Numbered from the stretch's first letter, positions 44,273-64,000 are shown. The stretch is DNA of 64,000 nucleotides from an uncultured Cellvibrionaceae bacterium (GCA_964546435.1 CAZJKJ010000001.1:75470-139469); one strand, 5' to 3'. The notes: generated from the sequence alone by a model not told the origin. Numbers and translations: made by a program.

Positions 44273-45421
44273 CTAGCTGTACGACAATGGTCCCGCAGTA
44301 TCACTCACGACCCCATGGGCATATTTTGTCAATAACATCTCCACGTCTTTCTGGTAGATCTTTAACATGGGATAGTAGCGAACGAAAGCGTTCCTTGCTT
44401 CATCAGTTTGAACCCAAACATCCAGCGATGAGCATGTACTGTAATCATATATAACAGCTTCTCCGCCCCCGAAAAGCGCTTTCTCAACAGAATTTTTGAG
44501 TTCAATTGTATCGCCGGAAATATGGGTGAACACGAATACACTGGTTGAATGTATCTTATTCTCGGGGACGCATAAATCCTCTCCTGTGGTAAGCAGATCA
44601 ATGGCTTTCTCTCGCGCCATATCCAGCGCAAATGGATGCTTCTTCAAAAAATATTGGATATTCCGTCGATATTGGAGCAGGCGTTCCCCTCCACCCAATA
44701 GATCATCCCGGGTATCTCTTCCTTGATGAACAACCTGCATAAATGGATTGACACACATCAATGCCCCGTACTGTTGGCAGCGATAGCCGAACTCGAGATC
44801 TTCCAGCCCCCACTCAACGAATTTCTCATCAAACCCGCCCAATGCTTCGATAATGCTTCGTTTAATCGCCATGTTACACGTGTAGACCATGGCCCATGGA
44901 TACTTCATTGCTCTTACATTGAAAGAATTACCCAAACAGATATTGTACCGAAAATCTAAATCGTCCTGAGGAATACCAAAATCATGCTGCTCAGCAAACG
45001 ATACGCTTCCGCTGGAAAAGGTACGGTTGCCAACGACTAAAAAATAGCTACTCTCATTAAAATACCGGTCGAGTTGCAGAAGGTGGTCTACATAAACCAA
45101 TATATCGGCATCAACGAATACAACAAATTCACCTGACGATGCTCTTATTCCTGCATTTCGCGCCCTCGCTCTACAAGAAACGCTAGTACGTTCCAAGCGT
45201 ACAAAGCTGACCTCCGCCTCTGGAACATTTTGCCTTACATACAGCTCACTTCCATCGGTTGAACCATCATCAACCACTACGATTTCATATGTATAATCAT
45301 GACCTGTTTTAACGCCCATGATCGATCTCAAGCAGTTTTCCAGCCGATACTTACTATTGTAAGCTGGTATTATGAAGCTGTACTTTATCGGCCGATTGGC
45401 TCGCGTCATACTAGTGTCCAT
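44273..45421 (-). CDS. glycosyltransferase family 2
   Basis: YSFIIPAYNSKYRLENCLRSI, VVVDDGSTDGS and a DxD motif (VFVDADIL). Confidence 0.85.
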   Translation of the reverse strand: MDTSMTRANRPIKYSFIIPAYNSKYRLENCLRSIMGVKTGHDYTYEIVVVDDGSTDGSELYVRQNVPEAEVSFVRLERTSVSCRARARNAGIRASSGEFVVFVDADILVYVDHLLQLDRYFNESSYFLVVGNRTFSSGSVSFAEQHDFGIPQDDLDFRYNICLGNSFNVRAMKYPWAMVYTCNMAIKRSIIEALGGFDEKFVEWGLEDLEFGYRCQQYGALMCVNPFMQVVHQGRDTRDDLLGGGERLLQYRRNIQYFLKKHPFALDMAREKAIDLLTTGEDLCVPENKIHSTSVFVFTHISGDTIELKNSVEKALFGGGEAVIYDYSTCSSLDVWVQTDEARNAFVRYYPMLKIYQKDVEMLLTKYAHGVVSDTAGPLSYS

Positions 45422-45639
45422 TGGATCCTGTAGCCCTCACTCCACAAACGCCTGTTGTGTTTCTCTAGAAGCCATTTCATAACCGCTACAATTGCAGATG
45501 CAGCGATAAAAAGCTTATCAAAATACTCATTTACTTCATGTAAAATCTGCTTTTTAAGCCATTCTTCTCTGTCTCACCTTCGCTCGCGAGCTGTGAAATC
45601 TCCTCCAGCCAGATCTTAATTTGCACTTTAAGCACGACT

Positions 45640-46368
45640 TTATATTCTGCACTCGCGCTCTATATTCACCTCAAAGGCGAGATCATTGTGCTCGCATTCA
45701 TATCGGTAGCACCAATGATCTTCTTCGCCAAGCCGCGCTAATAAATCGATCTTCTCGGCTTGTTTATGCCAAGCATCACTTACATCATTGGGTCCCGCAT
45801 TCACTTTCTGCTTCCGGGATACGGAGATCAATGGTAAATTTTCGTCCGGGCCTTGATGAGCGACAATTTTTAACCAGAGCGCTAAGCCGGGTTCTGAACC
45901 AAATATGTTTGCATCGGCCGGCGAACCACCCAAAAACTGATTTAAATAGAACAACCACACCTCATGACACTTCTCATCTTTAATCGCTAGACTGATGTAC
46001 TCAAGTGCACCACTGAACACCCCGATCCCACTTTCGCTCAACACAATGGTCTGCTCTGCATTGACGTTATATTTGGCACGGATCGCTGAAACCAGCGAAT
46101 CGCCGCCATACATATCCAGATCAGGCATCCAGTAACAGAGGGCGATCAGATCAGGGTCGCCTTCTGGAGCAAGAGCTTCCACCATCTCAGTATGCGATGG
46201 GGCCGGAACAGAGTTCATCCTTTCGATATCACCTGGCGTAAGGTTCAGAGGCGCTGCCGTTCCGAGACTCACCAGCAAGTTACGATATGCCATCAAACGG
46301 TCATGATCGATTTTTACGGATCCCTCGCCGATAGCAAACCTTTCCACTCTAACTGTCTTTAGGTACAT
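45640..46368 (-). CDS. hypothetical protein (island-specific)
   Basis: 242-aa ORF in the same orientation and composition as its neighbours. I recognised no catalytic motif. Confidence 0.45.
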   Translation of the reverse strand: MYLKTVRVERFAIGEGSVKIDHDRLMAYRNLLVSLGTAAPLNLTPGDIERMNSVPAPSHTEMVEALAPEGDPDLIALCYWMPDLDMYGGDSLVSAIRAKYNVNAEQTIVLSESGIGVFSGALEYISLAIKDEKCHEVWLFYLNQFLGGSPADANIFGSEPGLALWLKIVAHQGPDENLPLISVSRKQKVNAGPNDVSDAWHKQAEKIDLLARLGEEDHWCYRYECEHNDLAFEVNIERECRI

Positions 46369-46451
46369 ATGTTCCTTCCTTATAGGTCCGGGAACCTCAC
46401 GTCTAAGCCCCGAACGACTTCTGTGCGGATTAATATAGTGTCAACGTCGGA

Positions 46452-47378
46452 CTAGCACTGAATCAAGGCCGATGTATAAAAAAATCCAGACCCCAATGAC
46501 ACACATAGGCATAGGTCGCCCGGTTGAACACTTCCGTCTTCCTCAGCCGTACGAAGGTTGATAAAATTGTCTGCCGTAAAGCAGTGACCAGTCTTCGGAA
46601 CATTTTTCAAATATACTTTGGATCGGTCCAAACCAAGATTCTTTGCAGCCTGAAGCCAGGCTGTTCTATTTATATTGTGAGGCAATATGAATTTTACCTC
46701 ATCAAACGTCCGCCCTCCCTTTTTAACACTATCGGTTAAGAATTCAGTAAGCAGGCGAGGATGATCTTCATTAAACCGTTCTATAATTTTTGGATCATGG
46801 AATCCCATATAGAAACGGCTATCAATTTTAAGATTGGTGGTAATGAGATAATTCTTGGTCGCGTTTTTGGTGATCAGTGCAGCGGCAGCGCCATCGCCTG
46901 TAATCGTGTTACCTGGCTGTACTCGCCAACTACCAATACCCCGATCACCGCACAGAATTAAAACCGCGTCGTTCTCTTCCCCATGTTCAAGTACCGTCTT
47001 CGCGTACTTCAACGCCATAACACCGGAGGCGCAATTTGCTTGAGTAACAGCCATGGCGCTGCACTCCCGCAAGTCATAGCGTCTGATAATTTCGCCAAGA
47101 ACCGGCTTTAGCGGATCTTGATTAACTCCAACGGTATGTGTGTAGAAAAGGTGTTTGATCTTATGATCGGCTGCCTTAGGACTGTCGAGCAACTTATCCA
47201 GAGCACCCGTGAGCAAATCCTGCAAAGTCTGTTGTGGATCATAAGCTATCTCCCGTTGCCCGTGATAAGTGGTGTGCAAAAACACATCCTTGTCGGATAG
47301 ACCCAGTTCCTGCGCAAGATCTGCAATCGTGACCCTCCGCTTGGGCAAATAGTAAGCGACTTCGTCAATTCCAATCAT
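46452..47378 (-). CDS. 3-oxoacyl-ACP synthase III (KAS III/FabH)-like condensing enzyme
   Basis: MIGIDEVAYYLPKRRVT, nucleophile region VTQANCASGVMAL, His region ILPHNINRTAW, and C-terminal SLGSGFF. The third triad position reads GHC rather than the GNT of FabH. Confidence 0.75.
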   Translation of the reverse strand: MIGIDEVAYYLPKRRVTIADLAQELGLSDKDVFLHTTYHGQREIAYDPQQTLQDLLTGALDKLLDSPKAADHKIKHLFYTHTVGVNQDPLKPVLGEIIRRYDLRECSAMAVTQANCASGVMALKYAKTVLEHGEENDAVLILCGDRGIGSWRVQPGNTITGDGAAAALITKNATKNYLITTNLKIDSRFYMGFHDPKIIERFNEDHPRLLTEFLTDSVKKGGRTFDEVKFILPHNINRTAWLQAAKNLGLDRSKVYLKNVPKTGHCFTADNFINLRTAEEDGSVQPGDLCLCVSLGSGFFYTSALIQC

Positions 47379-47487
47379 CTGTCATCCTCGTCAATTCGTA
47401 CTACATTGCCGCTATCGCTCAAGCATTCCATCTTCGTAGATCGTGCAGCGAAGGCTGATTATTAATAATCTAAGGAATATTCTTATG

Positions 47488-48978
47488 CTATATTGTTGCG
47501 ATTAATTGCGCCGTATCGATTTTTCCATGACTTGACAACGGTATTTGAGGTAGAAAGGATACCCCTCGCTGGATGTATTCTCGATCGAACCTCGTATCAA
47601 GCCAGGCTGAGAAATCCTTCTGATCATTGGGATGATTTTCCTTTAGCACAACGAATAAATGAGCCACCTCGTTGCCATCTCTGTCATTGACGCCGACTAC
47701 TTTGCATATTTCGACGTTGTCGTTCTCATAAATGATAGCTTCCATATCCTTAGGGAAAATGCAGAATCCGGCCTGCTTTATCAGCTCCTTAACTCGTCCT
47801 TTAAAATAGAGAAGTCCGCTATCATCTTGTAAAAATAAATCACCTGTCGCCAACCAGTTGTCATCCCTATAGCTGCCGGCTATCACCTCTGCGCCCGCTG
47901 TACCCTCAGCGCGAAAATATTGCTGGAAAACAGACGTTCCTCGGACATATAGCTGTCCGATCTGTCCTCGCGGCATTTCTCTCAGGTGGCGCTCACCGTT
48001 CTCTGCCACCACTTCTTCAAAGATCTTTGCATCTAACCCTGGCATAGCAATACCAACGGAATCAGCATTTTCTAACGAGAGCTCATGCGGCAAATACGAC
48101 ACGCGCTTAGATTCGGTAAGTCCATACATTTTGCAGATGTGGACGTCGCTGTGAACCAGCTTGCGAAGGGCGTTGAACGACTTGACTGGAAAAGCCCCGC
48201 CAGTACTGGTTATGAGCCTTACGCTGTCAATCCTCTTCTTGAAGGCATCCATATACTTAATCATGCTGGTAGCCAACGCCGGAACTAAAGGAAACACTGT
48301 GACGGAGTAGTTATTCACAGCGTTAACTAGATTTATAGGATTGACCGGCCCCTCGTAGAGAACGAAGCGACATCCGGTGGCCAAACAAAAAAGTAGTTGA
48401 TATAGGCCATAATCAAACGATAAGGGAGATATGCCGATGATCACATCGTCCTTTGTGATATGAAGATAAGCAAGAATCCCCCTCAAAGCTGAAATCACGT
48501 TCGCGTGCGTCAGCATGATGCCCTTCGGCTGACCAGTACTGCCCGATGTATAGATTATTAACGCTAAATCGACGCCGGTTAACTTAGGCTTCGACAGAAA
48601 CTCGACTCGTGCGCGACCCGTCGATCTACCGCCGGCTTCTTGAAGCAATTGAAGCCTGGGGTCCAAAATATAACGAGCTCCACAATCATCTACTATCCGT
48701 TGTAGAGATTCCCTCGCGGTTTCCCGCTTGACCGGTACCACGATACCACCGACACTCCAGATGGTCATCAAAGACTCAATGGTGCTCACCGAATTTTCTA
48801 CCAATACGATGATTTTATCCTGATGTGAAATGGATTCGTATGCAGCAATCGAATGTTTCACGGCCTCTTTTAATCCCTCGCCAGCAACTACATCTCCGCC
48901 GGTTGATGATATATGTCCGCTCCATCCATCAGTCAACGCAGCATCCACCAAGTCTTTGATCGTGAAAATACTGTCCAT
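47488..48978 (-). CDS. AMP-dependent synthetase/ligase (acyl-ACP or acyl-CoA ligase)
   Basis: Adenylation core motifs IIYTSGSTGQPKGIMLTH, YGLTE and GDL...D.GLLYFKGRVKELIK. Confidence 0.85.
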   Translation of the reverse strand: MDSIFTIKDLVDAALTDGWSGHISSTGGDVVAGEGLKEAVKHSIAAYESISHQDKIIVLVENSVSTIESLMTIWSVGGIVVPVKRETARESLQRIVDDCGARYILDPRLQLLQEAGGRSTGRARVEFLSKPKLTGVDLALIIYTSGSTGQPKGIMLTHANVISALRGILAYLHITKDDVIIGISPLSFDYGLYQLLFCLATGCRFVLYEGPVNPINLVNAVNNYSVTVFPLVPALATSMIKYMDAFKKRIDSVRLITSTGGAFPVKSFNALRKLVHSDVHICKMYGLTESKRVSYLPHELSLENADSVGIAMPGLDAKIFEEVVAENGERHLREMPRGQIGQLYVRGTSVFQQYFRAEGTAGAEVIAGSYRDDNWLATGDLFLQDDSGLLYFKGRVKELIKQAGFCIFPKDMEAIIYENDNVEICKVVGVNDRDGNEVAHLFVVLKENHPNDQKDFSAWLDTRFDREYIQRGVSFLPQIPLSSHGKIDTAQLIATI

Positions 48979-48990
48979 AATAGCTCACCC

Positions 48991-50642: not shown

Positions 50643-50668
50643 TTCCGTTATCTCTTAATGAGAAAGCG

Positions 50669-50941
50669 CTAGACCAACACTTCGAATGAGATCATTTGAT
50701 TATGCATATCCGCAAGCGTCGTCATTTCATCGAACTGCAACTCAGACGCATCAATTGCAAAGTCACCATATATTTCTTCACAGGCTATGATAATCTCCAC
50801 TATATTCAGAGAGTCGATCCCGATTTCCGACAAAGGTACAGTGTGATCAACCGTATCTGTGTTTAAGGCTTCAGCTGTACTTGTGATCAATTTTCCCAGT
50901 AATTCTGGGTAGGCTACGGAAGCGTCATTTCCGTCTCTCAT
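50669..50941 (-). CDS. acyl carrier protein
   Basis: 90 aa, acidic, with phosphopantetheine site SEIGIDSLNIVEII. Confidence 0.8.
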   Translation of the reverse strand: MRDGNDASVAYPELLGKLITSTAEALNTDTVDHTVPLSEIGIDSLNIVEIIIACEEIYGDFAIDASELQFDEMTTLADMHNQMISFEVLV

Positions 50942-50972
50942 ATCATTCTCCGATTATTTTTAACTAATACCA

Positions 50973-52253
50973 TTAAAAAACACTAATTTTAAGTGTCCCC
51001 TCTACCGCGATATCTTTTGTGACAGCGCCAAACTCTGAAGTATCACTACCCGCATACTGGATGAACCTCAAGGCAAGCTCAGAACGGCCCCAGAACGCCC
51101 TTTTTAAACCTAGAGAACCTACATAGCTTTCGTCGTCTATACCTGCCAGCACTCGGGACTCGACCTCCACTTTAAAGGCCGAGGCGAAGGCAACATACGA
51201 AACCGAAAGATAATTTTCTCGAAGATAATTCTCACTAAAGACCGACCCAGAAATAGGAACTTCGGTGTAGCCAAAGCGAGCGAACTCCGCCACTGCCTTG
51301 CCGACTTCCTCGTTTATTTCATCTTCAAAACCTCTTCCATTATGGAAGTACTCCAGTTGAACTCTTTGCCGCTCATCAATAAAATGAGATACCACTACAA
51401 GAAGATCCAAGTAAGTTGATTCTTGGCTGAGGCTCTCCAATGTTGTTCCAAAATAGGCCGGGTACATAAGGCGCTCTTTGTCTATCTCGACGTATATCGC
51501 TTCTACGGCCAAGGTCGTGTCAAGCGGTAGTGAGCTGTCGAATACAGCACCTACCTTCTCCGAATATTTGCCTATCTTCCCCAAGAGCAGAGAAAATTCG
51601 GCGCCTCTTCTGACGTTTATCTTTACCGCGAATTGGTCACCGTCGTAAAAATCGCGGTCTTGGTTCGATGCAATTAGAGAAAAGTCGACATAACTTCCTA
51701 ATTTTTCATATTGAATCTGGTCGACTCCTCGATAGCGTCGGGGATCGAAGACATCGACATCCTTGGTAACAAAGTCGTTGCTGATGAGATCGGCGGGGCG
51801 CCACTGGAAGCCGGCGCTCCATCCCATATACTTACGCCCCACAGATAGATACTGGCCGGTCGCTTTATGGCCCGCTTCATAGAATCCTTCCAGTAACTCG
51901 GATTCAGTATCATATTGACTTTGGTCGGATACACGATCATGACTCCAAATACCGACTCCACGTGCAATCAATCTCGAACTGTCAGTCGGCAGATATTTCA
52001 ATCCCAGATCGCCAAAGACCTGATGTGTGGTTAGATCGAGGCCGTCATTGCGAATCAGCCCCGCCGTATGCTTGACTCGATAGGCCAAATCCAGACTAGT
52101 ACTTCCTTTTGGCGGCATACCACCAGAACTCACCTCTTCTAACTTAAACTGCTCTTGCTCAAATGGATCGAATGGATCGAATTTATCTGCGTGACAATTC
52201 AAAGCCTGTAGTATAAGTAGAAAAAGCAGATAGACCTTTGCAGTCATAGACAT
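50973..52253 (-). CDS. secreted protein, candidate outer-membrane beta-barrel
   Basis: Signal peptide MSMTAKVYLLFLLILQALNCHA. Alternating-strand composition and a C-terminal ...LKISVF (terminal Phe, typical of OMPs). Confidence 0.55.
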   Translation of the reverse strand: MSMTAKVYLLFLLILQALNCHADKFDPFDPFEQEQFKLEEVSSGGMPPKGSTSLDLAYRVKHTAGLIRNDGLDLTTHQVFGDLGLKYLPTDSSRLIARGVGIWSHDRVSDQSQYDTESELLEGFYEAGHKATGQYLSVGRKYMGWSAGFQWRPADLISNDFVTKDVDVFDPRRYRGVDQIQYEKLGSYVDFSLIASNQDRDFYDGDQFAVKINVRRGAEFSLLLGKIGKYSEKVGAVFDSSLPLDTTLAVEAIYVEIDKERLMYPAYFGTTLESLSQESTYLDLLVVVSHFIDERQRVQLEYFHNGRGFEDEINEEVGKAVAEFARFGYTEVPISGSVFSENYLRENYLSVSYVAFASAFKVEVESRVLAGIDDESYVGSLGLKRAFWGRSELALRFIQYAGSDTSEFGAVTKDIAVEGTLKISVF

Positions 52254-52257
52254 CGGC

Positions 52258-54147
52258 TTAGGCGCTTCTTTGATTCATAAAATTTTTTGCAGATAATCCT
52301 TTGAAATTCTCGTCAACCGTTGATATCGAAGCTAACTTCGACGGAACTAAAGATATTGTGTTCTTAAAGAAATACCCTGCCGAGCAGATTTTGCCTTGAT
52401 AAAATTCCTTCTCATAATTTCTTTGGGGATTCTCCATTTCCTGTTCGGCTACCAGAGCGTTTTCGAGGAGAAGCCATCCAAGCATAAAATCTCCGAATGC
52501 TTCCAGAAAGCGCGTGGCCATTAGGTAGATTTGCTCAATCTGCCCTCCGGACAGCCACGTACCGAAAATCTTTAATGTGTCTTCAATACCTATGAATGCG
52601 TTCTCCAGCATGGCAAAATGTTCGCCAAAACTCGCACGCGACTTGCGGAGTTCGTAGAAATCAATAAACTCCTCTCGGAGATACTCAAACAGTCGCGATC
52701 GCTTTCCCAGGCACAGCTTGTTACGTAAAAAATCTGCACTCTGTATATAGTTGGTCCCCTCCCATATGCTCAAAATCTTTACATCTCGAGCATTCTGTTC
52801 CACCGGGAAATCGCTCGTATAGCCATAACCCCCGTGGACTTGAATCGCCGTTTCACATATCCGCCATGCACAATCAGAACAATATGCTTTAACTATTGGT
52901 GTAAGGAGGTCAGCAAGACCTTCATATTTCCGCATCTGCGCCTTTAGCTCAGGATCGTCCGCCTTGAAAGTCGCAGCCAGCGATTGGTAGTGAGCGGCCT
53001 TGAAAACAAGAGCTCTCAACCCTTCGACTTTCGATTTCATATCTAACAGCATCCGCTGTACATCCATGTGCATAATGATGGGCAAACGTTCTGCTTGACT
53101 GGAAGCCATTGCTCGTACGCTGGTACCCTGGATGCGACAGTTTGCATATTCGACTGCTGAATAGTAGGACGACGCGGCCAAACCCAGTGCGTAGGTTCCT
53201 GTAGCCATTCTTGCCATATTCATCAACAAAACAATCTGGGACAATCCCTTATTTTCTTGTTCGCCGAGCAAGGTTCCATAACTAGGGCCCTCTCGGCCGA
53301 AGCTCAGTTGGACAGTTGCGTTTCCTTTGAGCCCCATCTTTCGCTCAACTCTATCGCAACTGACGTTATTGATCACGCCTGGTTCACCCTCAAGTTCAGT
53401 CATAACTTTAGGGACTACGAAACAGCTCAACCCTGCAGTACCAGCCGGCGCACCCTCGACTCTAGCAACCACGAAATAAACAATGTTTTCGGATAGATTG
53501 TGCATTCCAGATGAAATGAATATCTTGTCACCTTCTATTCGATAGCGGCCGCACGGCTCGCGATAGGCCTTCGTTCTCAATACACCGACATCTGAACCGG
53601 CTCCTGCCTCCGTCATGACCAGCGCCGCAGTCATGCTCGGGATGGAGAGCGCTTGGCAGTACGCCTTTCTCTGCTGTGCGCTCCCGTGTTTTTCCAGGAG
53701 ATATACTGCGCCAATATTAAAGCCTGGGTAGATACAAAAAGATGGGTCAGCACCGTACAGCACGCTGTACACCGCTTGATTAATTACGTAGGGAGTACCG
53801 GCACCGCCGTATTCTAGAGGTGCCGACACGCCGCACAGTCCGAGCTCCCGAAACCGTCTCCAAACGTGATGGTATATTTCGGGAACACGCACGTCATATC
53901 CCGATCTCCTTTTACACCCTTCTTTGTCGGCAAGCTGATATGACTTGCCAAGGTATTCCTTGGCGAATTTCACCGCGAGTTCAATTATTTGAACACAGCT
54001 GTTTTTATCGACATGAGCAAACGCCCTACCGTCCAGTAAAGCTTCATCAACCCGCAAGACGTCAAACAATTGGTAATAGACGTCACGTTCGTCTATTTTG
54101 TAAGATGATAAATGGTCTAGCACCGACTCTCTCGACTCGTTATTCAT
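52258..54147 (-). CDS. acyl-CoA dehydrogenase family protein (long, about 630-aa type)
   Basis: ACAD middle-domain motif MTEAGAGSDVGVLRTKA, C-terminal helical region QVHGGYGYTSDFPVEQ, and an extra C-terminal domain. Confidence 0.8.
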   Translation of the reverse strand: MNNESRESVLDHLSSYKIDERDVYYQLFDVLRVDEALLDGRAFAHVDKNSCVQIIELAVKFAKEYLGKSYQLADKEGCKRRSGYDVRVPEIYHHVWRRFRELGLCGVSAPLEYGGAGTPYVINQAVYSVLYGADPSFCIYPGFNIGAVYLLEKHGSAQQRKAYCQALSIPSMTAALVMTEAGAGSDVGVLRTKAYREPCGRYRIEGDKIFISSGMHNLSENIVYFVVARVEGAPAGTAGLSCFVVPKVMTELEGEPGVINNVSCDRVERKMGLKGNATVQLSFGREGPSYGTLLGEQENKGLSQIVLLMNMARMATGTYALGLAASSYYSAVEYANCRIQGTSVRAMASSQAERLPIIMHMDVQRMLLDMKSKVEGLRALVFKAAHYQSLAATFKADDPELKAQMRKYEGLADLLTPIVKAYCSDCAWRICETAIQVHGGYGYTSDFPVEQNARDVKILSIWEGTNYIQSADFLRNKLCLGKRSRLFEYLREEFIDFYELRKSRASFGEHFAMLENAFIGIEDTLKIFGTWLSGGQIEQIYLMATRFLEAFGDFMLGWLLLENALVAEQEMENPQRNYEKEFYQGKICSAGYFFKNTISLVPSKLASISTVDENFKGLSAKNFMNQRSA

Positions 54148-54165: not shown

Positions 54166-54993
54166 TTACAGCGGCCGGTGAATCAACTGCGCGTTAACAG
54201 TAGGTGGTGTTTCGATAACCGCAAAGCAATAGTATCCCCGCAGTGCCAGTGAACCGAACAGAATCGTTTCAGGAAGCTGGCGTTGGTTACAGATGTCTTT
54301 GATGAAAGATATCCATGGATCACTGCCAAACGCATGCCCAAACTCAGTATGGTAGCAGGTTAATTGATCTACCATCTTCAAAGACCGACGAATAGGAATT
54401 GACATATTGGCAGGAAAAAACGGTAAGGATATAGTATCTGATTTAGTTATCCTTGCCACAGTCTTAGCAAAGCTGGCAAAGCTAATAATATTGTTCCCGC
54501 CGCTTGCCATCCCGGTGTAGATCGGGTAGCAATCCGGGTCACCTTCCATATTTTCAAAAAACAATGTTGTTATTCCAAAGCCAGATTTACCCCAATGGTC
54601 ATTGAAATCCCAGTATTTCATTTCCATCGAGTTTACGTCTACGATACTGATTGCAAAATATCTGTCTCCGCGTTTGTGCTGATAATGGTGACGCATACAG
54701 TAGCCCCAGCAGGCGCACTCATATGCATTTGTGAAGCATATCTCCGGCCTACTCGCGAACGGCGCGATATCCATCAGAGCCATACTACCGGATGAAAAGA
54801 CAGTATCCATCATCGTGCTACAGAAGTAGTGTTGGCTCGAATCAGAATAATCATATTCCTTCCCGCTACCAATATTTGAAACCTGCATACTTATTACGTC
54901 ACGGATCTCAACTGCACTGTCAGCAATAGTAAAGCCTCGCGCGGGGAAATTCATTGGCGTATAGAGCGCGTCACGCAATACAATCCTAGCCAT
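54166..54993 (-). CDS. hypothetical protein (possibly a degenerate thiolase-fold protein)
   Basis: 275-aa ORF overlapping the thioesterase gene by 8 nt. Only weak resemblance to condensing enzymes (ECACWGY, FGHAFGSDPW). No confident family call. Confidence 0.45.
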   Translation of the reverse strand: MARIVLRDALYTPMNFPARGFTIADSAVEIRDVISMQVSNIGSGKEYDYSDSSQHYFCSTMMDTVFSSGSMALMDIAPFASRPEICFTNAYECACWGYCMRHHYQHKRGDRYFAISIVDVNSMEMKYWDFNDHWGKSGFGITTLFFENMEGDPDCYPIYTGMASGGNNIISFASFAKTVARITKSDTISLPFFPANMSIPIRRSLKMVDQLTCYHTEFGHAFGSDPWISFIKDICNQRQLPETILFGSLALRGYYCFAVIETPPTVNAQLIHRPL

Positions 54994-55402
54994 GAACGTC
55001 CGGCACCTGAACTTCGTCTGGTAGACTGAACGCTACGATAATATCATCCGGAACTGGAATTACTTTTCTCGCCTTGCTGTCAACGCATACCATTCTTACT
55101 GCCATTTCGCACATCGGCTTTTCCTTCCTTACAAACTGTGTTCTCCATTCCATTCCGCTACGATCTATGTTAGCCAAGCGTGTTATCACTCCGATTTCAT
55201 CTTCCAAAAATATCGCGCTGATGTACCGAGCACTGACCGCGCGGACAGTCAAGGATATTCCGTACGTCTCGCTCAGGCCAGTAAAGGACTGATTGCGACC
55301 CCTAAGCCACCAGTGACGGCTACTCTCGGCCAACTCCAGGTACTTCGCATGATGCAACACTCCTCCCGCGTCCGTATCGGCATATGCCACCAAATATTCC
55401 AT
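54986..55402 (-). CDS. acyl-CoA/acyl-ACP thioesterase (4HBT hotdog, YbgC-like)
   Basis: N-terminal VAYADTDAGGVLHHAKYLELAE motif. 138 aa. Confidence 0.75.
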   Translation of the reverse strand: MEYLVAYADTDAGGVLHHAKYLELAESSRHWWLRGRNQSFTGLSETYGISLTVRAVSARYISAIFLEDEIGVITRLANIDRSGMEWRTQFVRKEKPMCEMAVRMVCVDSKARKVIPVPDDIIVAFSLPDEVQVPDVHG

Positions 55403-55407
55403 AACGG

Positions 55408-57804
55408 CTACACCACACGACGCAGAACAATCGCGCTGTGCTCGAATGTTACCGACGAAAACAGAATTAAAATGTGGCTAACCTTATCACCAGACACTTT
55501 CGATGTCGGACGCCAAAGCGCATTGCCGGTAATAGATGCTTTCCAGTAGTCCTGACCATTCAATATAGCGGCACCATAGCTCAACATTTGTGGAAAAATC
55601 GCGGAGGGTGCGTATCCATGGTGCATCGCCACCGACGTCAGGTCGGGCAATTTATCGGCAAAAATTCGATGAATTACTGAACGCTCGGCATCGAGGAATA
55701 AAGAAGTCCCTTGTCCAACGCCAATGACCAGATCGATGTCTTCGGGCTGTGTTCCGGAGTCAGCTAAGGCGCTTTTTGCAATGCGCTCCAAGCACCGGCC
55801 GTCCAGATCGAGAGTGTGGCCTAGCCCATCCTGAGCGGTGGCAATGCTTACAACCTCGGCAAGCTTCCTTCCCTCCCGTCGGTCAATTGCTTGGCCGGAT
55901 TCCAGCATCAATACATTTGCGCCTTCGTTCAAAAAGAATCCCGGTACAGGACTGCCTGATTCGAAACGCCCGAGTACCCCTAACTGATCGCACACTTGCA
56001 AAACCATGGGACTCAGTTCATCCGTCGAAAAAGCGAAAATTCTTTCCTGACGTCTTAAGGAAACCATATCGCATGCGAATTTAACTGCCCCTACTGGTCC
56101 GCATAGAGTGGTATTGAACCCTTTAATGCCAAAATGTATGGATACTTCGCCCGCAGCTGCGTTTAAAGTAGTCAATGGAAACTGCGTCGAACTGGCATAT
56201 GCCAAGCCGTCTTTCATAATTGAACGCATGTATTTCTCAAGAGCATTTTGTGCGCCGTGAAGCAGGCCAGCAACCAGCCCCGTTTCATAACGCTTCTCCT
56301 GCATGAGCGACGCTAAGTCAAAATGTGTAATTGCATCCTGAACTGCTTCTACCGCAAATCTAATACTTGGCGAAGAGCGGCGCGAATTTCTTGCTCCTCG
56401 GCCTATCGCTTTTTCAACAGTACCGACAAAGGTATGCAGTGCATTATCATTTTCTTCAATGACGACTCCATTGTCTAACGATGCGAGCCATGCATTACCA
56501 CCCAATGCATTAGCCGAATAGTTTCCGAAGGCGCTGATGTAGACCTTTTCCTGATCCGGCTGTCGCCCATTGCGCCTTCCACTCGCTCGGGAAACTACCA
56601 GCGACGAGTTGTTTCCACCAAAGCCGTAATTATTACAGAGGAACGTAGACACATCCGCCGGGCACGGGTCACTGCCGACATAATTAAGATGAGCGCAGCC
56701 GGGCCTAACGTTTTTAAAGTTAGCCGTGGGTGGCAAGAATCCCTTCTCTGTGTTAAGCAGGGTAATGATCAATTCGATCACCCCACTGGCACCCAATGTG
56801 TGCCCGACTATGGACTTGGCACTACTAACAGGTACCTCTCGGCCAAAAATTCGCTCCATAGCCAAGGATTCTGCAACATCGTTACTGTCCGTTCCAGTGC
56901 CGTGCGCGGAAATGTAATCGATATCCTTCGGCTCAATACCGGCATCTTTTATTGCGTTCTGAATTGCCGCTGCAATTCCTTCGCCGGTCTCGTCTACAGA
57001 AGTTGCATGAAATGCATCACTCGATAACGCGTAGCCTATTATTTCACCACGGTGAGAGATACCGCGCGACTTGCACGCAGCGTGTTGTTCTAGAATGACG
57101 ACGCCGGCTCCCTCTCCCAATGTAATTCCCGATGGCTCGGAAAAGGGCGCAGCGACTTCTTCGCTCAGTACCTTGAGACTGTTAAACCCGGCTACGATGC
57201 TTTCCGATACGGTATCAGTTCCCACCACTATAACGGTATCTGCCTGGCCCGTTAATATCAGATCGTGGCCGTAACCGACCGCAGTGTTACTTGAAGAGCA
57301 CGCGGAAGAAATGGTAATCTTTATGCCTGTTAATCCGAGATATTGACATACTTTCGTCGCGACATGGTCAGTAAGTGCTGCGAAAAAATCAGCAGCTTCC
57401 AAGCTTACAGCGTTGCCAGAGTTAACTGCCTTGAATATTTTCTCTACGTGCTGTATTCCGCTATGAGAAGTGCCGACAACTACGGCCGTTCTGCTAGAAT
57501 TGATGCTTTCCTTTTTCAAATTCGCGTTCGCTAACGCCTCATCCAAAGATTTAATCGTGAACCAAACTCCACGATCCGTCCCCGCTATTATCTCCGACCC
57601 GAGATCGAATGTGTCAGACCAGGAAAACTCGGATATTCTATCGCCCAGCAGCTTGCTGGCATCATAATTTACGGCCGGAGCAACGCTACTTTCCTTTCTT
57701 AACACGGCTTCACATAATGCTTCGGAATTTCTCCCAAGCGGAGTAAAAACCCCAATACCGGAGATTACGACTGCACTTTTTTTTTGGTTTATCTTGTTCA
57801 TCAT
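55408..57804 (-). CDS. fused beta-ketoacyl synthase plus chain-length-factor-like domain (KS-CLF)
   Basis: N-terminal half: VISGIGVFTPLG, ITISSACSSSNTAVG, ISAHGTGTDSND, KSIVGHTLGASG and NNYGFGGNNSSLVV. The C-terminal half of about 380 aa is KS-like without the Cys/His/His residues. Confidence 0.85.
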   Translation of the reverse strand: MMNKINQKKSAVVISGIGVFTPLGRNSEALCEAVLRKESSVAPAVNYDASKLLGDRISEFSWSDTFDLGSEIIAGTDRGVWFTIKSLDEALANANLKKESINSSRTAVVVGTSHSGIQHVEKIFKAVNSGNAVSLEAADFFAALTDHVATKVCQYLGLTGIKITISSACSSSNTAVGYGHDLILTGQADTVIVVGTDTVSESIVAGFNSLKVLSEEVAAPFSEPSGITLGEGAGVVILEQHAACKSRGISHRGEIIGYALSSDAFHATSVDETGEGIAAAIQNAIKDAGIEPKDIDYISAHGTGTDSNDVAESLAMERIFGREVPVSSAKSIVGHTLGASGVIELIITLLNTEKGFLPPTANFKNVRPGCAHLNYVGSDPCPADVSTFLCNNYGFGGNNSSLVVSRASGRRNGRQPDQEKVYISAFGNYSANALGGNAWLASLDNGVVIEENDNALHTFVGTVEKAIGRGARNSRRSSPSIRFAVEAVQDAITHFDLASLMQEKRYETGLVAGLLHGAQNALEKYMRSIMKDGLAYASSTQFPLTTLNAAAGEVSIHFGIKGFNTTLCGPVGAVKFACDMVSLRRQERIFAFSTDELSPMVLQVCDQLGVLGRFESGSPVPGFFLNEGANVLMLESGQAIDRREGRKLAEVVSIATAQDGLGHTLDLDGRCLERIAKSALADSGTQPEDIDLVIGVGQGTSLFLDAERSVIHRIFADKLPDLTSVAMHHGYAPSAIFPQMLSYGAAILNGQDYWKASITGNALWRPTSKVSGDKVSHILILFSSVTFEHSAIVLRRVV

Positions 57805-57812
57805 TGTTACGC

Positions 57813-58565: not shown

Positions 58566-58573
58566 AGTGATCC

Positions 58574-59245: not shown

Positions 59246-59257
59246 TTCGATGTCCGC

Positions 59258-59557
59258 TTATGCTTCGGCGGCTTTCGTGGATCGTTCAATCACCATATCC
59301 ACCAAGGTCGAAATCGATCGGCATTTTTCTGAAATGTAATTGCTGTCAATTGACATCGCTCTAAATCCGTATTCTTTTTCAATACCCACTATAAGATCCA
59401 GCATATCGACGGAATCAAGATCCAATCCACCGTCTCCCATAATCAGGGTATCCTCGTTAAAGTCTTCTTCCGAATAGCCATCATCTTCAAGCTCCAATCG
59501 GTCTAGCAGTATCCGGTTAACTATAAAACTCACCACCTCGGCTCGGTCTGCATTCAT
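59258..59557 (-). CDS. acyl carrier protein
   Basis: 99 aa, acidic, with phosphopantetheine site GGLDLDSVDMLDLIV. Confidence 0.8.
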   Translation of the reverse strand: MNADRAEVVSFIVNRILLDRLELEDDGYSEEDFNEDTLIMGDGGLDLDSVDMLDLIVGIEKEYGFRAMSIDSNYISEKCRSISTLVDMVIERSTKAAEA

Positions 59558-59606
59558 TTTTTCATCATCTCCATTTTTTATGTTTTAACATCTGGCCTTA
59601 CAACCA

Positions 59607-60561: not shown

Positions 60562-61379
60562 AATCTTTTGAAACCATTTTTGGTAAACATGGAATCGGGA
60601 TGATTGTCCTTTCTAAATTCGTGCATTCTTATCCAGATCACCATTTCTTTTTTGAGCGCATCTTTAATCTTGATCTTTTCCATTTTTACCTGGCCGCCGT
60701 ACTCACTAAACGAAACATACTCAATTGTCTTTAGGAGCCGGCCAGATCGGGTATAATGCTTGGTTATCACTGGACGCTGGCTACGCAAATCATACTGCAC
60801 ATCGATTTTCGCATATGTTGCATCACCTTCCTTGCTAGTCAATTCCATAAATAGCAGATCGCCTTCCTGGTCAATTTCCTGACGAGTCACCTGGTAGTCA
60901 TGAATATAAGAGGTATTTAAAACGTCCGCGATCGATGCCTGTCCAAAAACCTTTTGTAATGGCGCAATCCTGATCACATTAACGCTGCTTGGAAGATACA
61001 GCCACATATCTGTATCTCGCACTAGAGTGCGCCTCCCTTTTTGATCCTCTGGTGACAGTATTTCAATGACGGAGTAGCCCTTTTCGCTCACCTTTATCGA
61101 AAGCCAGTGCGTCGCAACAACGTCTTCACCTTCGACGGTGATTACCTCCGACATGAAGGAAAAGCCGGAATCCCTGAAGCCGCGCAAATACTCCATGTTT
61201 CTGATAGCTTCGGTGACCTGAGTCGACAGATCCTCTACGCTCGTACCTACTTTTCTGGGTTGAAGGCTCTCTTCCTGAACCACTGTCTCGGCAACGGAAT
61301 TTGAAGAGACAGTCTGGCCAAAGATAAGACCGGTCATCAAAGCGCTCGATAAAATTTTTCGCATAAACAAGCCTTCCAA
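60558..61379 (-). CDS. LolA-like outer-membrane lipoprotein-sorting protein family
   Basis: Signal peptide, then MWLYLPSSVNVIRIAPLQKVFGQASIADV. This is the same family motif as the protein at 23586-24452. Confidence 0.7.
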   Translation of the reverse strand: MEGLFMRKILSSALMTGLIFGQTVSSNSVAETVVQEESLQPRKVGTSVEDLSTQVTEAIRNMEYLRGFRDSGFSFMSEVITVEGEDVVATHWLSIKVSEKGYSVIEILSPEDQKGRRTLVRDTDMWLYLPSSVNVIRIAPLQKVFGQASIADVLNTSYIHDYQVTRQEIDQEGDLLFMELTSKEGDATYAKIDVQYDLRSQRPVITKHYTRSGRLLKTIEYVSFSEYGGQVKMEKIKIKDALKKEMVIWIRMHEFRKDNHPDSMFTKNGFKRL

Positions 61380-61381
61380 CC

Positions 61382-62605
61382 TCAGCGCTGTATAGATTCA
61401 TTTATAGGAAGACTACCTGCCCGTAAGGCAGGAAGAAGCCCACCCACCAGGGTGGCTCCCAGTGTCAGCACCGCCGGATACCATACTACACTGTGATCTA
61501 GCAGAATTCTTAATGGATAGGAAAAAGTGGAACCGGGAGGTTTCGGCATAGAAATTTCTGCATAATTGACCGCGACCGACACCAAAACTCCTCCGAGTAC
61601 TCCTATAGCCACTCCAACTAAACCCACGACTATGCCTTCCGCGATTATTAACAGTATGACTTCTCTACTGGAGCATCCCAGTGCTCTAATCGTCGAGAGT
61701 TCCGATACCCTTTCCATTACCCCCATTGTCATGGTATTTACTATCGCTGCAAAAACCACAATAACGACCAGGGCTGTGACGAAACCGAAGATGTTGTCAA
61801 ACATTCTCACGATCTGGTGATACTGTTCTGACATGTCAGACCAAGATTTCACAGTAAGAGTACTGCTTACTTTTCCTGTCGCGTCTTCAATGCGGGTACC
61901 GCTCTCGGCGGACAGCTTCTCCTCATCCGCTAAGACGACGAGGTTGGTGATATCATCGTTATAAAGTACTTCATTCATAATCGGCAAATTGATCTTGATG
62001 AATCGCTTATTCAACTCTTTGATACCCGTATCCATGATACCAACGATAACGATGTCAACGGCGTTGATGGCGCCACTGCTAGTAGTGGTCAGGAACGTCA
62101 TTACATCTCCGAGTGAACCTCCAAGCTCCTCCATCAGTTCCTTCCCAATCAGCGCTCCTTCCGGACGTTCTGAAAACAGCCCCGTACCTTGTACTATTGA
62201 CACGGCTACGCTGACTTCAGCGTCTTCGTCGGCCTCGACTCCATAAGCCAAAACTCCTACTGATTTATCGCCGAACGATATCAGCCCTTGTGCTTCTATA
62301 CGGGGAGTCACGAGTTTTACTTCTTCGAGCTTTTCAATCTCTCTCTTTACCTCGTCAGCCAGGTCTTTGGCGATAAATCTTTTTGCGTACTCACTGCCGC
62401 CAGAACCGCTGTCTTGTACCTGGTAGTGTCCTAGTTGAGAATAAATGCTACCGAGACGTATGCCTTCGTACATTTGCGAGACATAGCCTCCAAACAAAAT
62501 CAGACTGATAGTTCCAATCGTAATTGCGCTGCAAGCGATCAGGTTTTTTCTCCAATCGCGCAGCACATTAAGAAGCACTAGTTTTGTGAAAAATAGAATG
62601 TACAT
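61382..62605 (-). CDS. ABC transporter permease, FtsX/LolC/LolE-like
   Basis: N-terminal TM, a periplasmic domain of about 220 aa, then three C-terminal TMs. The family-typical RALGCS region is present (STIRALGCSSREV). Confidence 0.8.
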   Translation of the reverse strand: MYILFFTKLVLLNVLRDWRKNLIACSAITIGTISLILFGGYVSQMYEGIRLGSIYSQLGHYQVQDSGSGGSEYAKRFIAKDLADEVKREIEKLEEVKLVTPRIEAQGLISFGDKSVGVLAYGVEADEDAEVSVAVSIVQGTGLFSERPEGALIGKELMEELGGSLGDVMTFLTTTSSGAINAVDIVIVGIMDTGIKELNKRFIKINLPIMNEVLYNDDITNLVVLADEEKLSAESGTRIEDATGKVSSTLTVKSWSDMSEQYHQIVRMFDNIFGFVTALVVIVVFAAIVNTMTMGVMERVSELSTIRALGCSSREVILLIIAEGIVVGLVGVAIGVLGGVLVSVAVNYAEISMPKPPGSTFSYPLRILLDHSVVWYPAVLTLGATLVGGLLPALRAGSLPINESIQR

Positions 62606-62675
62606 TGCTTTCTCAAATACCTGTGACAGTGAGCCCTAAGAAATAACTTGTAGTGGAGCGACAGACAGATACTAT

Positions 62676-63296
62676 TTACTTCGATTCTTTCGCTTTAATA
62701 CGTCCATACACTTCCTCTAAAGAGGAGCGAACCAATGCTTTAGTTTCATCATTTAGATTGTTAAACGCATCACTGCCTTTCACATACTCAAGATCTTCTT
62801 TGGCGATTAGAGTTCTATTGAGAAACTCAGGGGCTCGAAGGGATACAATGCCCCGATTCATCCGTGCAGTAATATTGTCCGGGTATTTACCGACAGCTTT
62901 ATCCAAGTAACGAAATCCCTTTGAAGCTAGCGTTCCCGCCTTGTTAACGTCTTGTGAGTGAAAGCCTGCCAAGCGTGCGTATAGAGCGCCCAATGTTGAC
63001 ATAAGCTCGGCTTCCATCAACACTCCAGTTCCGTCTTGCAGAGATTCGCCGTACGCCATTTTCTGCTCAACTTCACGAATCAAATCGGCGACTGTCTCCT
63101 CTTGTAAGTCGGCCGTTCTCAATGCACTACTAGCTTTTACCACCAATTCTCTAGTATTTTCCTGAAAATCCTCTGGGCTTTCATTCACCGCTTCGACGCT
63201 TGCTCTATCGGCATTTCTGGTTTCAGTTACAGCTGCCTTATCACTACAGGCAACCAGTCCCAACATTACGAAACCAATCATTATTATCTGCAACAT
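62676..63296 (-). CDS. lipoprotein, unknown function
   Basis: Lipobox MLGLVACS. The mature part looks helical. Confidence 0.5.
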   Translation of the reverse strand: MLQIIMIGFVMLGLVACSDKAAVTETRNADRASVEAVNESPEDFQENTRELVVKASSALRTADLQEETVADLIREVEQKMAYGESLQDGTGVLMEAELMSTLGALYARLAGFHSQDVNKAGTLASKGFRYLDKAVGKYPDNITARMNRGIVSLRAPEFLNRTLIAKEDLEYVKGSDAFNNLNDETKALVRSSLEEVYGRIKAKESK

Positions 63297-63423
63297 ACAT
63301 CCCCCATTTATAATACAGTTTCATGGATAACAGTCCCTGTCGCGATATTGAAAAGCAAGTAGATGAAGCACCGGCGCAGGAAAAACTACCGCAATAGTTT
63401 ACCGCTTAGTCCGGCGTAATATT

Positions 63424-64000
63424 TTAAACACCTTCGACTTTTCCATCCTTCACATGCACTTTCCTAATTCCGCTGTTCGATAGGTGTTGATCATGTGATG
63501 CAATTACAACCGTAACGCCCTTTTCGGCGTTTAATTTTCTTATCAATCCATAGACCAAATTCGAATTTTGACTGTCCAGATTTGCAGTTGGCTCGTCTGC
63601 GATTATCAGTTTCGGTGATTTTACAAAAGCGCGCGCTATAGATACCCTCTGCATTTGCCCACCTGAAAGTTGTTTCGGTCTTCGATTCGCATATTCTTCC
63701 ATACCAACTTCACGCAGAGCTGCAATAGATTTTTCTCTCGCCGATTTGTCTCGTAACATGTAAAGCGGATACATTACATTTTCCAACGCTGTCAGCGCCG
63801 CATGTAAATTGAAATGCTGGAAGACAATACCAATTTTGTTTCTTCTAATGGCAGCTAACTTACGGTCGCCAAGATTGGACACCACCGTGTTCTCGAAACG
63901 TATTTCACCTGACGTGGGGATATTTATAAGGCCAAGCATGCTCAACAAAGTACTCTTTCCACTACCACTCTGTCCTGTCAAGCAGACTAGCTCACCTTCC
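63424..64000 (-). CDS. ABC transporter ATP-binding protein (LolD/MacB-type), 5' end outside window
   Basis: Walker A GQSGSGKSTLL, signature LSGGQMQR and Walker B LIIADEPT. The frame stays open to the window edge. Confidence 0.85.
   Translation of the reverse strand, partial: EGELVCLTGQSGSGKSTLLSMLGLINIPTSGEIRFENTVVSNLGDRKLAAIRRNKIGIVFQHFNLHAALTALENVMYPLYMLRDKSAREKSIAALREVGMEEYANRRPKQLSGGQMQRVSIARAFVKSPKLIIADEPTANLDSQNSNLVYGLIRKLNAEKGVTVVIASHDQHLSNSGIRKVHVKDGKVEGV

Follow-up and report, generated by a model that had tools for sequence, protein, structure and literature searches.

A stretch of 64,000 nucleotides from an uncultured Cellvibrionaceae bacterium (GCA_964546435.1 CAZJKJ010000001.1:75470-139469), here called the window, ends in an AT-rich island whose minus-strand genes form an aryl-polyene (APE)-style envelope-lipid cluster that is rebuilt around an amino-acid cassette and includes several unannotated protein families. 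We propose, with a probability of about one half, that these genes form one horizontally acquired operon of ~25 genes, extending from ~41 kb to ~3.8 kb past the end of the window, and that its gene products synthesise and export a specialised lipid or pigment of the envelope, one that is both amino-acid-derived and of polyene type. The amino-acid cassette is termed module A and the elongation machinery module B. The product, at a best guess, is a polyunsaturated acyl chain that carries a head group derived from an amino acid and would be exported to the envelope. A preliminary description made from the sequence of the window alone had proposed a single non-canonical cluster for a specialised lipid, with fatty acid synthase (FAS)-like enzymes, on a foreign-looking island, and in this general form the proposal is borne out.

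The AT-rich island and its operon

The GC content is 43-50% from ~41 kb to the end of the window, compared with 52-64% upstream (calculated in 2-kb windows), which confirms that the island is AT-rich. At 400-nt resolution the drop is sharp, from 64% to ~45% between 40.4 and 41.4 kb, and sits directly after a plus-strand hrpB-like helicase gene that ends at 40692. Hence, the island begins ~3.5 kb before position 44273, the start assumed previously, and takes in the gene for an AsnB-type amidotransferase. Between 44273 and 64000 there are 20 complete open reading frames (ORFs) and one cut ORF, all co-directional and tightly packed, in agreement with the ~20 minus-strand genes of the preliminary description. 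From the gene of the MacB/LolCE-type permease to that of the AMP-ligase, neighbours overlap by 4-8 nt or are 2-31 nt apart, one gap of 49 nt excepted; wider gaps of 83-218 nt are found near the genes for the β-ketoacyl-ACP synthase III (KAS III)-like enzyme, the 242-aa protein and the family 2 glycosyltransferase (GT2). Scans for promoter and terminator consensus sequences gave no signal above shuffled expectation.

The window sequence from 45408 to 64000 (18,593 nt) recurs with 100% identity in a 31-kb Logan contig (L002), which extends 3.8 kb past the end of the window and shows that the operon continues upstream of the window edge, as had been predicted. The contig completes the cut ABC ATPase gene and adds genes for proteins of 182 aa, 324 aa and 343 aa and a gene resembling those of ornithine (Orn), diaminopimelate (DAP) and Arg decarboxylases. 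The cluster is present at 99.6-100% nucleotide identity in three independent sequencing runs, SRR24963214, SRR24963219 (L001, L087, L088) and SRR10083318 (L002, L089), and the organism thus recurs in sampled environments. Nearly all of the gene labels assigned in the preliminary description are backed by Pfam and NCBIfam (release of June 2026), and AsnB is the only cluster protein to reach a curated NCBIfam cutoff.

Conservation of gene order and modularity

The gene order from the decarboxylase to the AMP-ligase or KAS III gene is kept in Rheinheimera maricola (L003/L004) and Pseudomonas costantinii, with 38-75% protein identity. It begins with the decarboxylase, the 343-aa, 324-aa and 182-aa proteins, the ABC ATPase, the lipoprotein, the permease and the LolA-like protein, continues with the hotdog partner protein, the dehydratase, an acyl carrier protein (ACP), a pseudo-ketoreductase, the ketoreductase (KR), a fused ketosynthase (KS)-chain length factor (CLF) and the thioesterase, and ends with the 275-aa protein, an acyl-CoA dehydrogenase (ACAD), the 426-aa protein, a second ACP, the ABC-2 pair and the ligase. 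The KAS III-like gene of P. costantinii has moved to the front, upstream of the decarboxylase gene. The recurrence of this order in Rheinheimera and P. costantinii indicates that the genes constitute one biosynthetic cluster. The cluster is also found in Rheinheimera baltica (P0125). Some Rheinheimera strains produce the blue pigment glaukothalin, whose reported formula is a symmetric dimer with a five-carbon N-heterocycle and aliphatic chains (PMC2775678). Glaukothalin was considered as the product and set aside, as its formula has no obvious need for the machinery of the cluster and nothing links the pigment and the cluster.

The two modules also occur separately. Module A is found, with no KS-CLF, KR or dehydratase gene in the flanks that were fetched, in Xenorhabdus kozodoii, Microbulbifer variabilis, Thalassomonas actiniarum and Ramlibacter. 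There, the cassette comprises a ligase, a decarboxylase, an ACAD-fold protein, a KAS III-fold protein, a member of the 182-aa family, a carrier protein and a MacB-type exporter, and it also holds a long ACAD or an FAD halogenase-like protein. In these four loci the gene immediately upstream of that of the decarboxylase encodes the ligase, except in Ramlibacter, where it encodes the carrier protein. The accompanying genes differ: the Ramlibacter locus (L097 5373-17034) has an AurF-like diiron N-oxygenase, a GNAT protein and adjacent LuxI and LuxR genes, the first two of which would fit an amine intermediate, and the Thalassomonas (L096 7339-21074) and Microbulbifer (L091 7031-20839) loci encode a 645-667-aa FAD halogenase-like protein and an alpha/beta hydrolase. 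These differences in gene content suggest that the loci make a family of related products derived from amines. Module B, in turn, stands alone in Undibacterium and Fodinicurvata. In Undibacterium sp. Ji67W (L005 4267-13405) it consists of ten genes, encoding AsnB, two hotdog proteins, an ACP, a KAS III, a pseudo-KR, a KR, a KS-CLF, a thioesterase and a last ORF with a weak match, below the Pfam cutoff, to a phosphopantetheinyl-transferase domain; this locus may represent a minimal polyene or polyene-amide system, and it is the only other place in which AsnB is linked to module B machinery. As each module is found alone, the cluster of the window is a composite of two separable modules.

Module B, the elongation machinery

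The core of module B is a protein with two ketoacyl-synthase regions. Cys169, His301 and His335 of its N-terminal region are invariant in 13 aligned homologues and the equivalent C-terminal positions vary freely, so that the C-terminal domain is best regarded as a CLF-like inactive partner and the protein, as stated in the preliminary description, as a KS-CLF fusion. More than 100 full-length fusion homologues were found at 35-59% identity, the closest at 54-59%. The KR has an intact Ser147/Tyr160/Lys164 triad. Next to it is encoded the 223-aa protein, which has no Pfam match and whose profile matches FabG and MabA structures over the full length at 1e-5; the catalytic Tyr is replaced by Pro and the Lys by Asn, and the Gly-rich motif is missing, as expected for the degenerate short-chain dehydrogenase/reductase that it had been taken for. 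The protein is probably a non-catalytic partner of the KR, beside which it is kept in Undibacterium and Fodinicurvata. The dehydratase retains His50 and Glu64 of the FabZ active site, and its 153-aa neighbour, previously listed as a second hotdog protein, aligns with it by profile comparison (hhalign probability 98%, E 2e-13). In four aligned orthologues of the 153-aa protein Glu76 is invariant and the position of the catalytic His is not, and the protein is probably the partner subunit of the dehydratase. Each catalytic elongation subunit is thus apparently paired with a degenerate copy.

Pfam domain scans detected no enoyl-reductase family in any cluster gene, and for this reason module B should build an unsaturated, polyene-type acyl chain on its carrier protein, ACP99. 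With a KS carrying a Cys-His-His triad, a non-catalytic partner, a discrete ACP, a KR and a dehydratase, and with no enoyl reductase, module B has the composition of a highly reducing type II polyketide synthase (PKS). It resembles in this respect the actinomycete systems of the ishigamide Iga11-Iga12 type, cited in PMC8358021, in which discrete KS/CLF, KR, dehydratase and ACP iterate to a polyenoyl-ACP and no enoyl reductase takes part. An amide-forming step is associated with such systems, and an AsnB gene lies nearby both in the window and in Undibacterium. The present cluster differs from the Iga type, to which it is likened by its composition, in its Gram-negative host, the fusion of KS and CLF, the envelope export genes and the coupling to module A. 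Literature searches for the fused KS-CLF, for the present combination of genes and for a linked Xenorhabdus product returned nothing relevant.

Module A, the amino-acid cassette

Module A encodes together a standalone amino-acid-type adenylating enzyme, the AMP-ligase, a standalone carrier protein, ACP90, and a fold-type III pyridoxal phosphate (PLP) decarboxylase, the combination expected of a system that forms an aminoacyl-ACP starter unit. The best relatives of the ligase in the PDB are the adenylation (A) domain of LgrA (1e-43) and, at 1e-35 to 1e-37, 3wv4/3wvn and beta-aminoacyl-ACP synthetases, with FadD and 4CL behind. The 3wv4/3wvn chains, which the search tool labels only as 'Non-ribosomal peptide synthetase', we take to be VinN. 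The A4 motif PLSFD(Y/A)GL, which reads PLSFDYGL in the ligase of the window, and the A10 Lys are conserved in 7/7 module A ligases, and the motif is absent from ApeH. The Asp of the A4 motif in adenylation domains binds the amino group of the substrate, and its presence in the motif is suggestive of an amino-acid substrate for the ligase. The carrier proteins of the Xenorhabdus and Microbulbifer loci share 44-48% identity with ACP90, and the 629-aa ACAD, which matches FadE5 (PDB 6kse) over its full length at 2.7e-88, is 41-42% identical to the ACADs of the same two loci. The 308-aa KAS III-like enzyme has a Cys116/His234/His265 triad, with a His at the position of FabH Asn274, and is 24.5% identical to E. 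coli FabH.

Vicenistatin synthesis is an established case in which an adenylating enzyme and a standalone ACP work with a PLP decarboxylase that acts on the amino acid while it is bound to the ACP (PMC11284099). Both the vicenistatin proteins VinN/VinL/VinO and the butirosin proteins BtrI/BtrJ/BtrK comprise, like module A, a standalone adenylating enzyme, a carrier and a PLP enzyme of the DAP-decarboxylase family. In contrast to these systems, the match to BtrK is modest (1e-17) and no better than that to decarboxylases of free substrates, the downstream machinery is a type II system, where theirs is a type I PKS or an aminoglycoside pathway, and there are no genes for protection and deprotection of the VinM/VinJ type.

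Several proteins of the cluster belong to families that Pfam and NCBIfam do not cover. The 275-aa and 324-aa proteins are paralogues with 24-28% identity and a common invariant Cys, His and Asp (Cys93, His220 and Asp225 in the 275-aa protein), and sequence searches of Pfam, NCBIfam and the PDB gave a match for neither. When the 275-aa protein was modelled with AlphaFold2 (pLDDT 84), FabH enzymes were the top Foldseek matches, with TM 0.6-0.69 at ~10% identity, and the protein is accordingly predicted to have the KAS III (FabH) fold. Its family is rare, with 30 clusters in 5.8 billion proteins and 112 representatives in 1.84 billion. Natural fusions join a KAS III-fold protein to a following member of the 182-aa family (P0277, P0279, P0291, P0314) or the two in reverse order (P0321, P0332, P0341, P0345), which suggests that the two families act together, perhaps as a complex; no Pfam domain was found in the fused relatives of 409-538 aa. 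For the 343-aa family, of which ~106 clusters are found in marine and soil Proteobacteria, a modelled orthologue (pLDDT 94) has an acyl-CoA dehydrogenase fold, and its structural matches include the acyl-ACP dehydrogenases TcsD and FkbI. That the 343-aa protein is a diverged copy of the 629-aa ACAD was considered and rejected, as a profile comparison of the two was empty and the ACAD fold comes from the predicted structure only. Profile searches of the PDB with the 275/324-aa, 343-aa, 426-aa and 182-aa families gave nothing significant. Also, hhalign gave no link between the 326/339-aa proteins of Xenorhabdus and Microbulbifer and the 275/324-aa family, a comparison with only two sequences on one side.

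Proposed pathway

Gene content, folds, active-site status, synteny and modularity are the observations from which we infer the following chemical steps, including the use of an amino acid and the polyene nature of the chain. The A-domain-like ligase would load an amino acid on ACP90, on which the PLP enzyme resembling DAP decarboxylases and BtrK would decarboxylate it. The two ACAD-fold proteins, the FadE5-like 629-aa protein and the cryptic 343-aa protein, may dehydrogenate thioester intermediates. Next, the KAS III-fold proteins, namely the 308-aa enzyme and the 275-/324-aa paralogues with their 182-aa partner, would prime, condense or transfer the nitrogen-containing unit, which KS-CLF, KR and dehydratase would extend on ACP99 to an unsaturated chain. 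The chain would be released by the 4HBT thioesterase and subsequently moved to or across the outer membrane by the ABC-2 pair, a candidate outer-membrane protein and the MacB/LolCDE-type system, to which the LolA-like protein and the lipoprotein belong. GT2 and AsnB would be strain-specific additions and may decorate the product.

A number of points weigh against this scheme. Four module A genes, those of the decarboxylase and the 343-aa ACAD-fold protein among them, are not part of the window and were read from the identical metagenome contig only, and the modelled member of the 343-aa family is an orthologue (63% identity) and not the protein of the present organism. Fatty-acid-CoA ligase models of NCBIfam score slightly higher for the ligase (222 bits) than the amino-acid adenylation model does (175 bits), all below their cutoffs, and a fatty or other acid is therefore a possible substrate. 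The decarboxylase matches BtrK, a Glu-ACP decarboxylase (6e-17), equally to DAP and Lys/Orn decarboxylases (~1e-17), and could act on a free amino acid. ACADs of the FadE5 type are typical of beta-oxidation. Finally, the lack of an enoyl reductase is no proof of a polyene, as the host FabI or an ACAD acting in reverse could reduce the chain.

We also propose, tentatively and with more doubt than confidence, that module A is a previously unrecognised cassette that is shared by ~100 proteobacterial lineages, among them Xenorhabdus, Pseudomonas, Microbulbifer and Rheinheimera, and converts an amino acid on its carrier into a new head group that contains nitrogen. In the window it would be wired to a type II PKS with a fused KS-CLF, giving a new class of outer-membrane polyene lipids capped by an amino group or N-heterocycle and distinct from APEs, flexirubins and xanthomonadins.

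Comparison with prodiginine, aryl-polyene and flexirubin pathways

The ligase, the carrier, the ACAD-family dehydrogenase and the two-domain ketosynthase with an inactive second half mirror PigI/PigG/PigA/PigJ of the bipyrrole branch of prodiginine synthesis. Hence, a pyrrole-primed sub-variant of the proposed pathway can be envisaged, in which proline is loaded on ACP90 and oxidized by an ACAD-fold enzyme to pyrrolyl-2-carboxyl-ACP, from which a PigJ-like double ketosynthase produces a pyrrolyl polyene. NCBIfam matches below threshold to PigJ (6.5e-20), RedW (2.5e-22) and PigA (4.3e-15) point in this direction, as do the halogenase-like and hydrolase genes of Thalassomonas and Microbulbifer, which are also found in halopyrrole pathways. 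However, the scores are far below the curated cutoffs (PigJ NF053555, 71 bits against 900; PigA NF053553, 55.7 against 500), and the 60 best matches of the ligase to solved structures include no adenylating enzyme specific for proline. The 629-aa ACAD belongs with FadE5 and not with the prolyl-carrier dehydrogenases of ~380 aa, and the decarboxylase, KR, dehydratase set and exporters have no Pig counterpart, the conserved PLP decarboxylase being left with no role. We therefore consider a pyrrolyl polyene unlikely.

A divergent but true APE cluster, in which the ligase loads 4-hydroxybenzoate or another aryl acid, KS-CLF, KR and dehydratases form the polyene and thioesterase, GT2 and Lol-like proteins fix it in the outer membrane in the manner of the E. 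coli and Vibrio systems, is improbable for a different set of reasons. The preliminary description had seen in these genes the APE toolkit, and the likeness to the clusters of E. coli CFT073 and Xenorhabdus is real at the level of enzyme classes: both follow a type II FAS-like logic that does without an enoyl reductase, and both combine a KS and its non-catalytic CLF with a KR, a hotdog dehydratase of two subunits, in the present case a probable pair, two carrier proteins, an AMP-ligase for ACP loading, a 4HBT thioesterase and Lol-like proteins for outer-membrane delivery, including a LolA-like protein, and a GT2 is also present here. At the level of individual proteins, compared by BLASTP with the APE cluster of E. 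coli CFT073 and the fabH-fabF and fabZ genes of strain K-12, a specific relationship is confined to ACP99, which of all the APE and FAS proteins matches ApeE best (29%, 8e-7). The KS half is equidistant from ApeR (196 bits), FabF (177 bits) and ApeO (173 bits), with ~32% identity to each, and the CLF half has no match to ApeC. Thus, the KS-CLF is functionally a KS with an inactive partner and is not an ApeO/ApeC-type pair; its NCBIfam score is highest with the fabF model (354 bits), ahead of PRK09185 (280, cutoff 407) and PRK09116 (276, cutoff 470). The KR scores higher with FabG (133 bits, 33% identity) than with ApeQ (102 bits, 27%), and the dehydratase is closer to FabZ (38.5% identity) than to ApeI (31% over 65 residues). 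In Pfam, the dehydratase, one of two hotdog paralogues in the cluster, scores 19.8 bits with the ApeI-like family (cutoff 28.5) compared with 63 bits for FabA, and orthologues of the dehydratases give faint or weak ApeP-like and ApeI-like matches. Thioesterase, LolA-like protein and GT2 have no BLASTP matches to ApeK, ApeL and ApeJ, respectively.

The two features that define APE synthesis, namely the loading of 4-hydroxybenzoate by ApeH and export via ApeM, ApeL and ApeN (PMC8253772), are absent. The ligase, with its amino-acid FD motif, gives only E 0.007 over 102 residues with ApeH and is not an enzyme of that type. No MMPL, DUF3261 (ApeN) or ApeD domain was found in 41-64 kb or in the L002 extension, and no methyltransferase gene is among the family matches of the cluster. 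The APE clusters thus differ in having MMPL and DUF3261 export, the acyltransferase ApeD and the methyltransferase ApeB, whereas the present cluster has MacB/Lol-type and ABC-2 export, a KS fused to its CLF, an extra pseudo-KR, an amino-acid-type A-domain ligase and, in addition, a PLP decarboxylase as well as two proteins with an ACAD fold and three with a KAS III fold. APE synthesis has no step for the decarboxylase or the ACAD-fold proteins (PMC8253772). Several of these departures (ABC instead of MMPL export, the large ACAD, the KAS III-like enzyme and the second transporter) had been pointed out in the preliminary description and agree with the family matches. A canonical APE cluster is ruled out by the direct comparison with the CFT073 proteins and E. 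coli FabF, FabG, FabZ and FabH, and with the PLP decarboxylase and the other genes past the window edge the likely chemistry shifts from an aryl-primed to an amino-acid-derived product. A hybrid of the flexirubin/dialkylresorcinol type, at which the KAS III-like enzyme had been thought to hint, is likewise ruled out, by scores of 22.3 bits for that enzyme with the StlD/DarB model NF005293 (cutoff 450) and of 157.9 bits for the KR with the FlxB model NF053542 (cutoff 340).

A chance juxtaposition of unrelated operons for exporters of lipoproteins or drugs, for beta-oxidation (ACAD, acyl-CoA ligase and thioesterase) and for spare FAS paralogues with no common product, for which the 83-218 nt gaps and the housekeeping-like relatives (FadE5-like ACAD, FabG-like KR, FabZ-like dehydratase and LolCDE-like ABC proteins) could be cited, is highly improbable given the synteny of ~24 genes across three genera at such low protein identity, the overlapping reading frames along the operon, the near confinement of rare families such as the 275-aa family to this context, and the fact that every component is below the curated cutoff of its housekeeping equivalent.

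Export and accessory genes

The cluster ABC ATPase has LolD and DevA as its best models (TIGR02211, 180 bits against a cutoff of 307.75, and 170 against 296, respectively) and the permease scores 107.8 bits with the lolCE model TIGR02212 (cutoff 362.45); being below the LolD and LolCE cutoffs, they are not members of the housekeeping LolCDE/LolA system. The periplasmic LolA-like protein (PF17131) has no NCBIfam match. An ATPase with an FtsX permease carrying the MacB periplasmic domain is the arrangement of type VII ABC exporters such as MacB, LolCDE and DevBCA, the last of which exports heterocyst glycolipids and provides a precedent for lipid export. Here, the pair is accompanied by a PF17131 LolA_like protein and a dedicated lipoprotein, not by a membrane-fusion protein. 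Orthologues of the lipoprotein in the syntenic clusters are 36-39% identical, as are those of the 426-aa protein, for which Pfam, NCBIfam and the PDB gave no match and whose counterpart after the ACAD in Xenorhabdus is 22% identical.

GT2 and AsnB are accessory genes outside the conserved core, and neither was seen in the DNA fetched from R. maricola and P. costantinii (10 kb on either side of KS-CLF). For GT2, this speaks against the place in an APE toolkit that it had been given. The AsnB-type amidotransferase, which had been described as a nearby gene, does lie on the island and a homologue adjoins module B in Undibacterium, but its association with the cluster does not extend to the fetched syntenic DNA of these two genomes.

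Gene content and neighbouring features

Table 1. Coordinates of the cluster genes in the window, listed from the AsnB side of the island to the window edge.
Feature	Position	Strand	Basis or remark
AsnB-type glutamine amidotransferase, 631 aa	41234..43129	-	TIGR01536 418.6 bits, cutoff 267
GT2 glycosyltransferase, 382 aa	44273..45421	-	Pfam Glycos_transf_2 1.1e-23; 218-nt gap to upstream gene
242-aa protein	45640..46368	-	No Pfam/NCBIfam match; 41%-identical orthologue at same position in Rheinheimera
KAS III-like thiolase-fold enzyme, 308 aa	46452..47378	-	Pfam ACP_syn_III_C and ACP_syn_III
Standalone adenylating enzyme (AMP-ligase), 496 aa, module A	47488..48978	-	Pfam AMP-binding
ABC-2 exporter permease, 249 aa	48991..49740	-	Pfam ABC2_membrane 6.6e-20; start overlaps ATPase gene by 4 nt
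ABC-2 exporter ATPase, 301 aa	49737..50642	-	Pfam ABC_tran 1e-28; weak DrrA1-3_C match
Carrier protein ACP90, module A, DSL serine motif	50669..50941	-	Pfam PP-binding 26.6 bits
Secreted 426-aa protein, candidate outer-membrane barrel	50973..52253	-	Signal peptide, C-terminal Phe
FadE5/DmdC-type long acyl-CoA dehydrogenase, 629 aa, module A	52258..54147	-	Four ACAD Pfam domains including Acyl-CoA_dh_C
Cryptic protein with predicted KAS III fold, 275 aa	54166..54993	-	AlphaFold2 model and Foldseek
YbgC-type 4HBT thioesterase, 138 aa, module B	54986..55402	-	Pfam 4HBT_2 3.6e-16
Fused KS-CLF-like protein, 798 aa, module B core	55408..57804	-	Two ketoacyl-synthase regions
Ketoreductase KR, 250 aa	57813..58565	-	Pfam adh_short 2.4e-43
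Pseudo-ketoreductase, 223 aa	58574..59245	-	Profile match to FabG/MabA structures
Elongation carrier protein ACP99, module B	59258..59557	-	NCBIfam PRK09184 30.8 bits, below cutoff
FabZ-type dehydratase, 166 aa	59607..60107	-	Pfam FabA 63 bits
Hotdog-fold dehydratase paralogue, 153 aa	60100..60561	-	Profile comparison with dehydratase; no Pfam match
Periplasmic LolA_like protein, 273 aa	60558..61379	-	Pfam PF17131 2.4e-27
MacB/LolCE-type permease, 407 aa	61382..62605	-	Pfam FtsX and MacB_PCD
Lipoprotein, 206 aa, LVAC lipobox	62676..63296	-	Translation; no family match
MacB/LolD/DevA-type ABC ATPase, full gene 220 aa	63424..64000, cut by window edge	-	LolD and DevA models

The genes for GT2 and AsnB are separated by a spacer of 1.1 kb (43130-44272), which contains short low-quality ORFs only, with no Rfam match and no notable repeats, and which may be a decayed gene or a promoter region. 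Elsewhere, the window encodes a bacterial small signal recognition particle RNA at 15652-15749 on the minus strand (78 bits), waaA and a dnaX of the PRK07994 type; no tRNA or rRNA genes were found in the whole window. Conserved proteins too, YgiQ for example, lack a named relative at 90% identity, which places the host in a poorly sampled Gram-negative lineage. A second FAS/PKS-like lipid cluster lies at 20967-36754 on the minus strand, at normal GC content. It contains a gene for an MMPL/HAE3 transporter of 868 aa (20967-23573), a 963-aa protein with an aminotransferase region that hits prodigiosin PigE (4.6e-95, below cutoff) and at least three FabF-like KS or CLF-like genes. This is presumably the cluster A that the preliminary description set beside the present one, its cluster B, and it has an MMPL exporter, which cluster B does not.

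Implications

Among the biosynthetic gene clusters of Gram-negative bacteria, those of the APE type form the most widespread family, with products that give protection against oxidative stress and influence biofilm formation (PMC8253772). Orphan clusters of the general type described here are common, and in this one a polyene machine of APE style is recombined with a separate amino-acid-processing cassette. Several enzymes of the cassette are invisible to Pfam and NCBIfam, and two of their folds could be assigned here from predicted structures only; genome-mining rules based on domains would therefore mislabel such a cluster or miss part of it. The cassette is found in cultivable and genetically tractable bacteria (P. 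costantinii, Rheinheimera and Xenorhabdus), which makes the product and the roles of the new thiolase-fold and ACAD-fold families directly testable. If the product is indeed a new envelope lipid or pigment, it would widen the known repertoire of outer-membrane specialised lipids.

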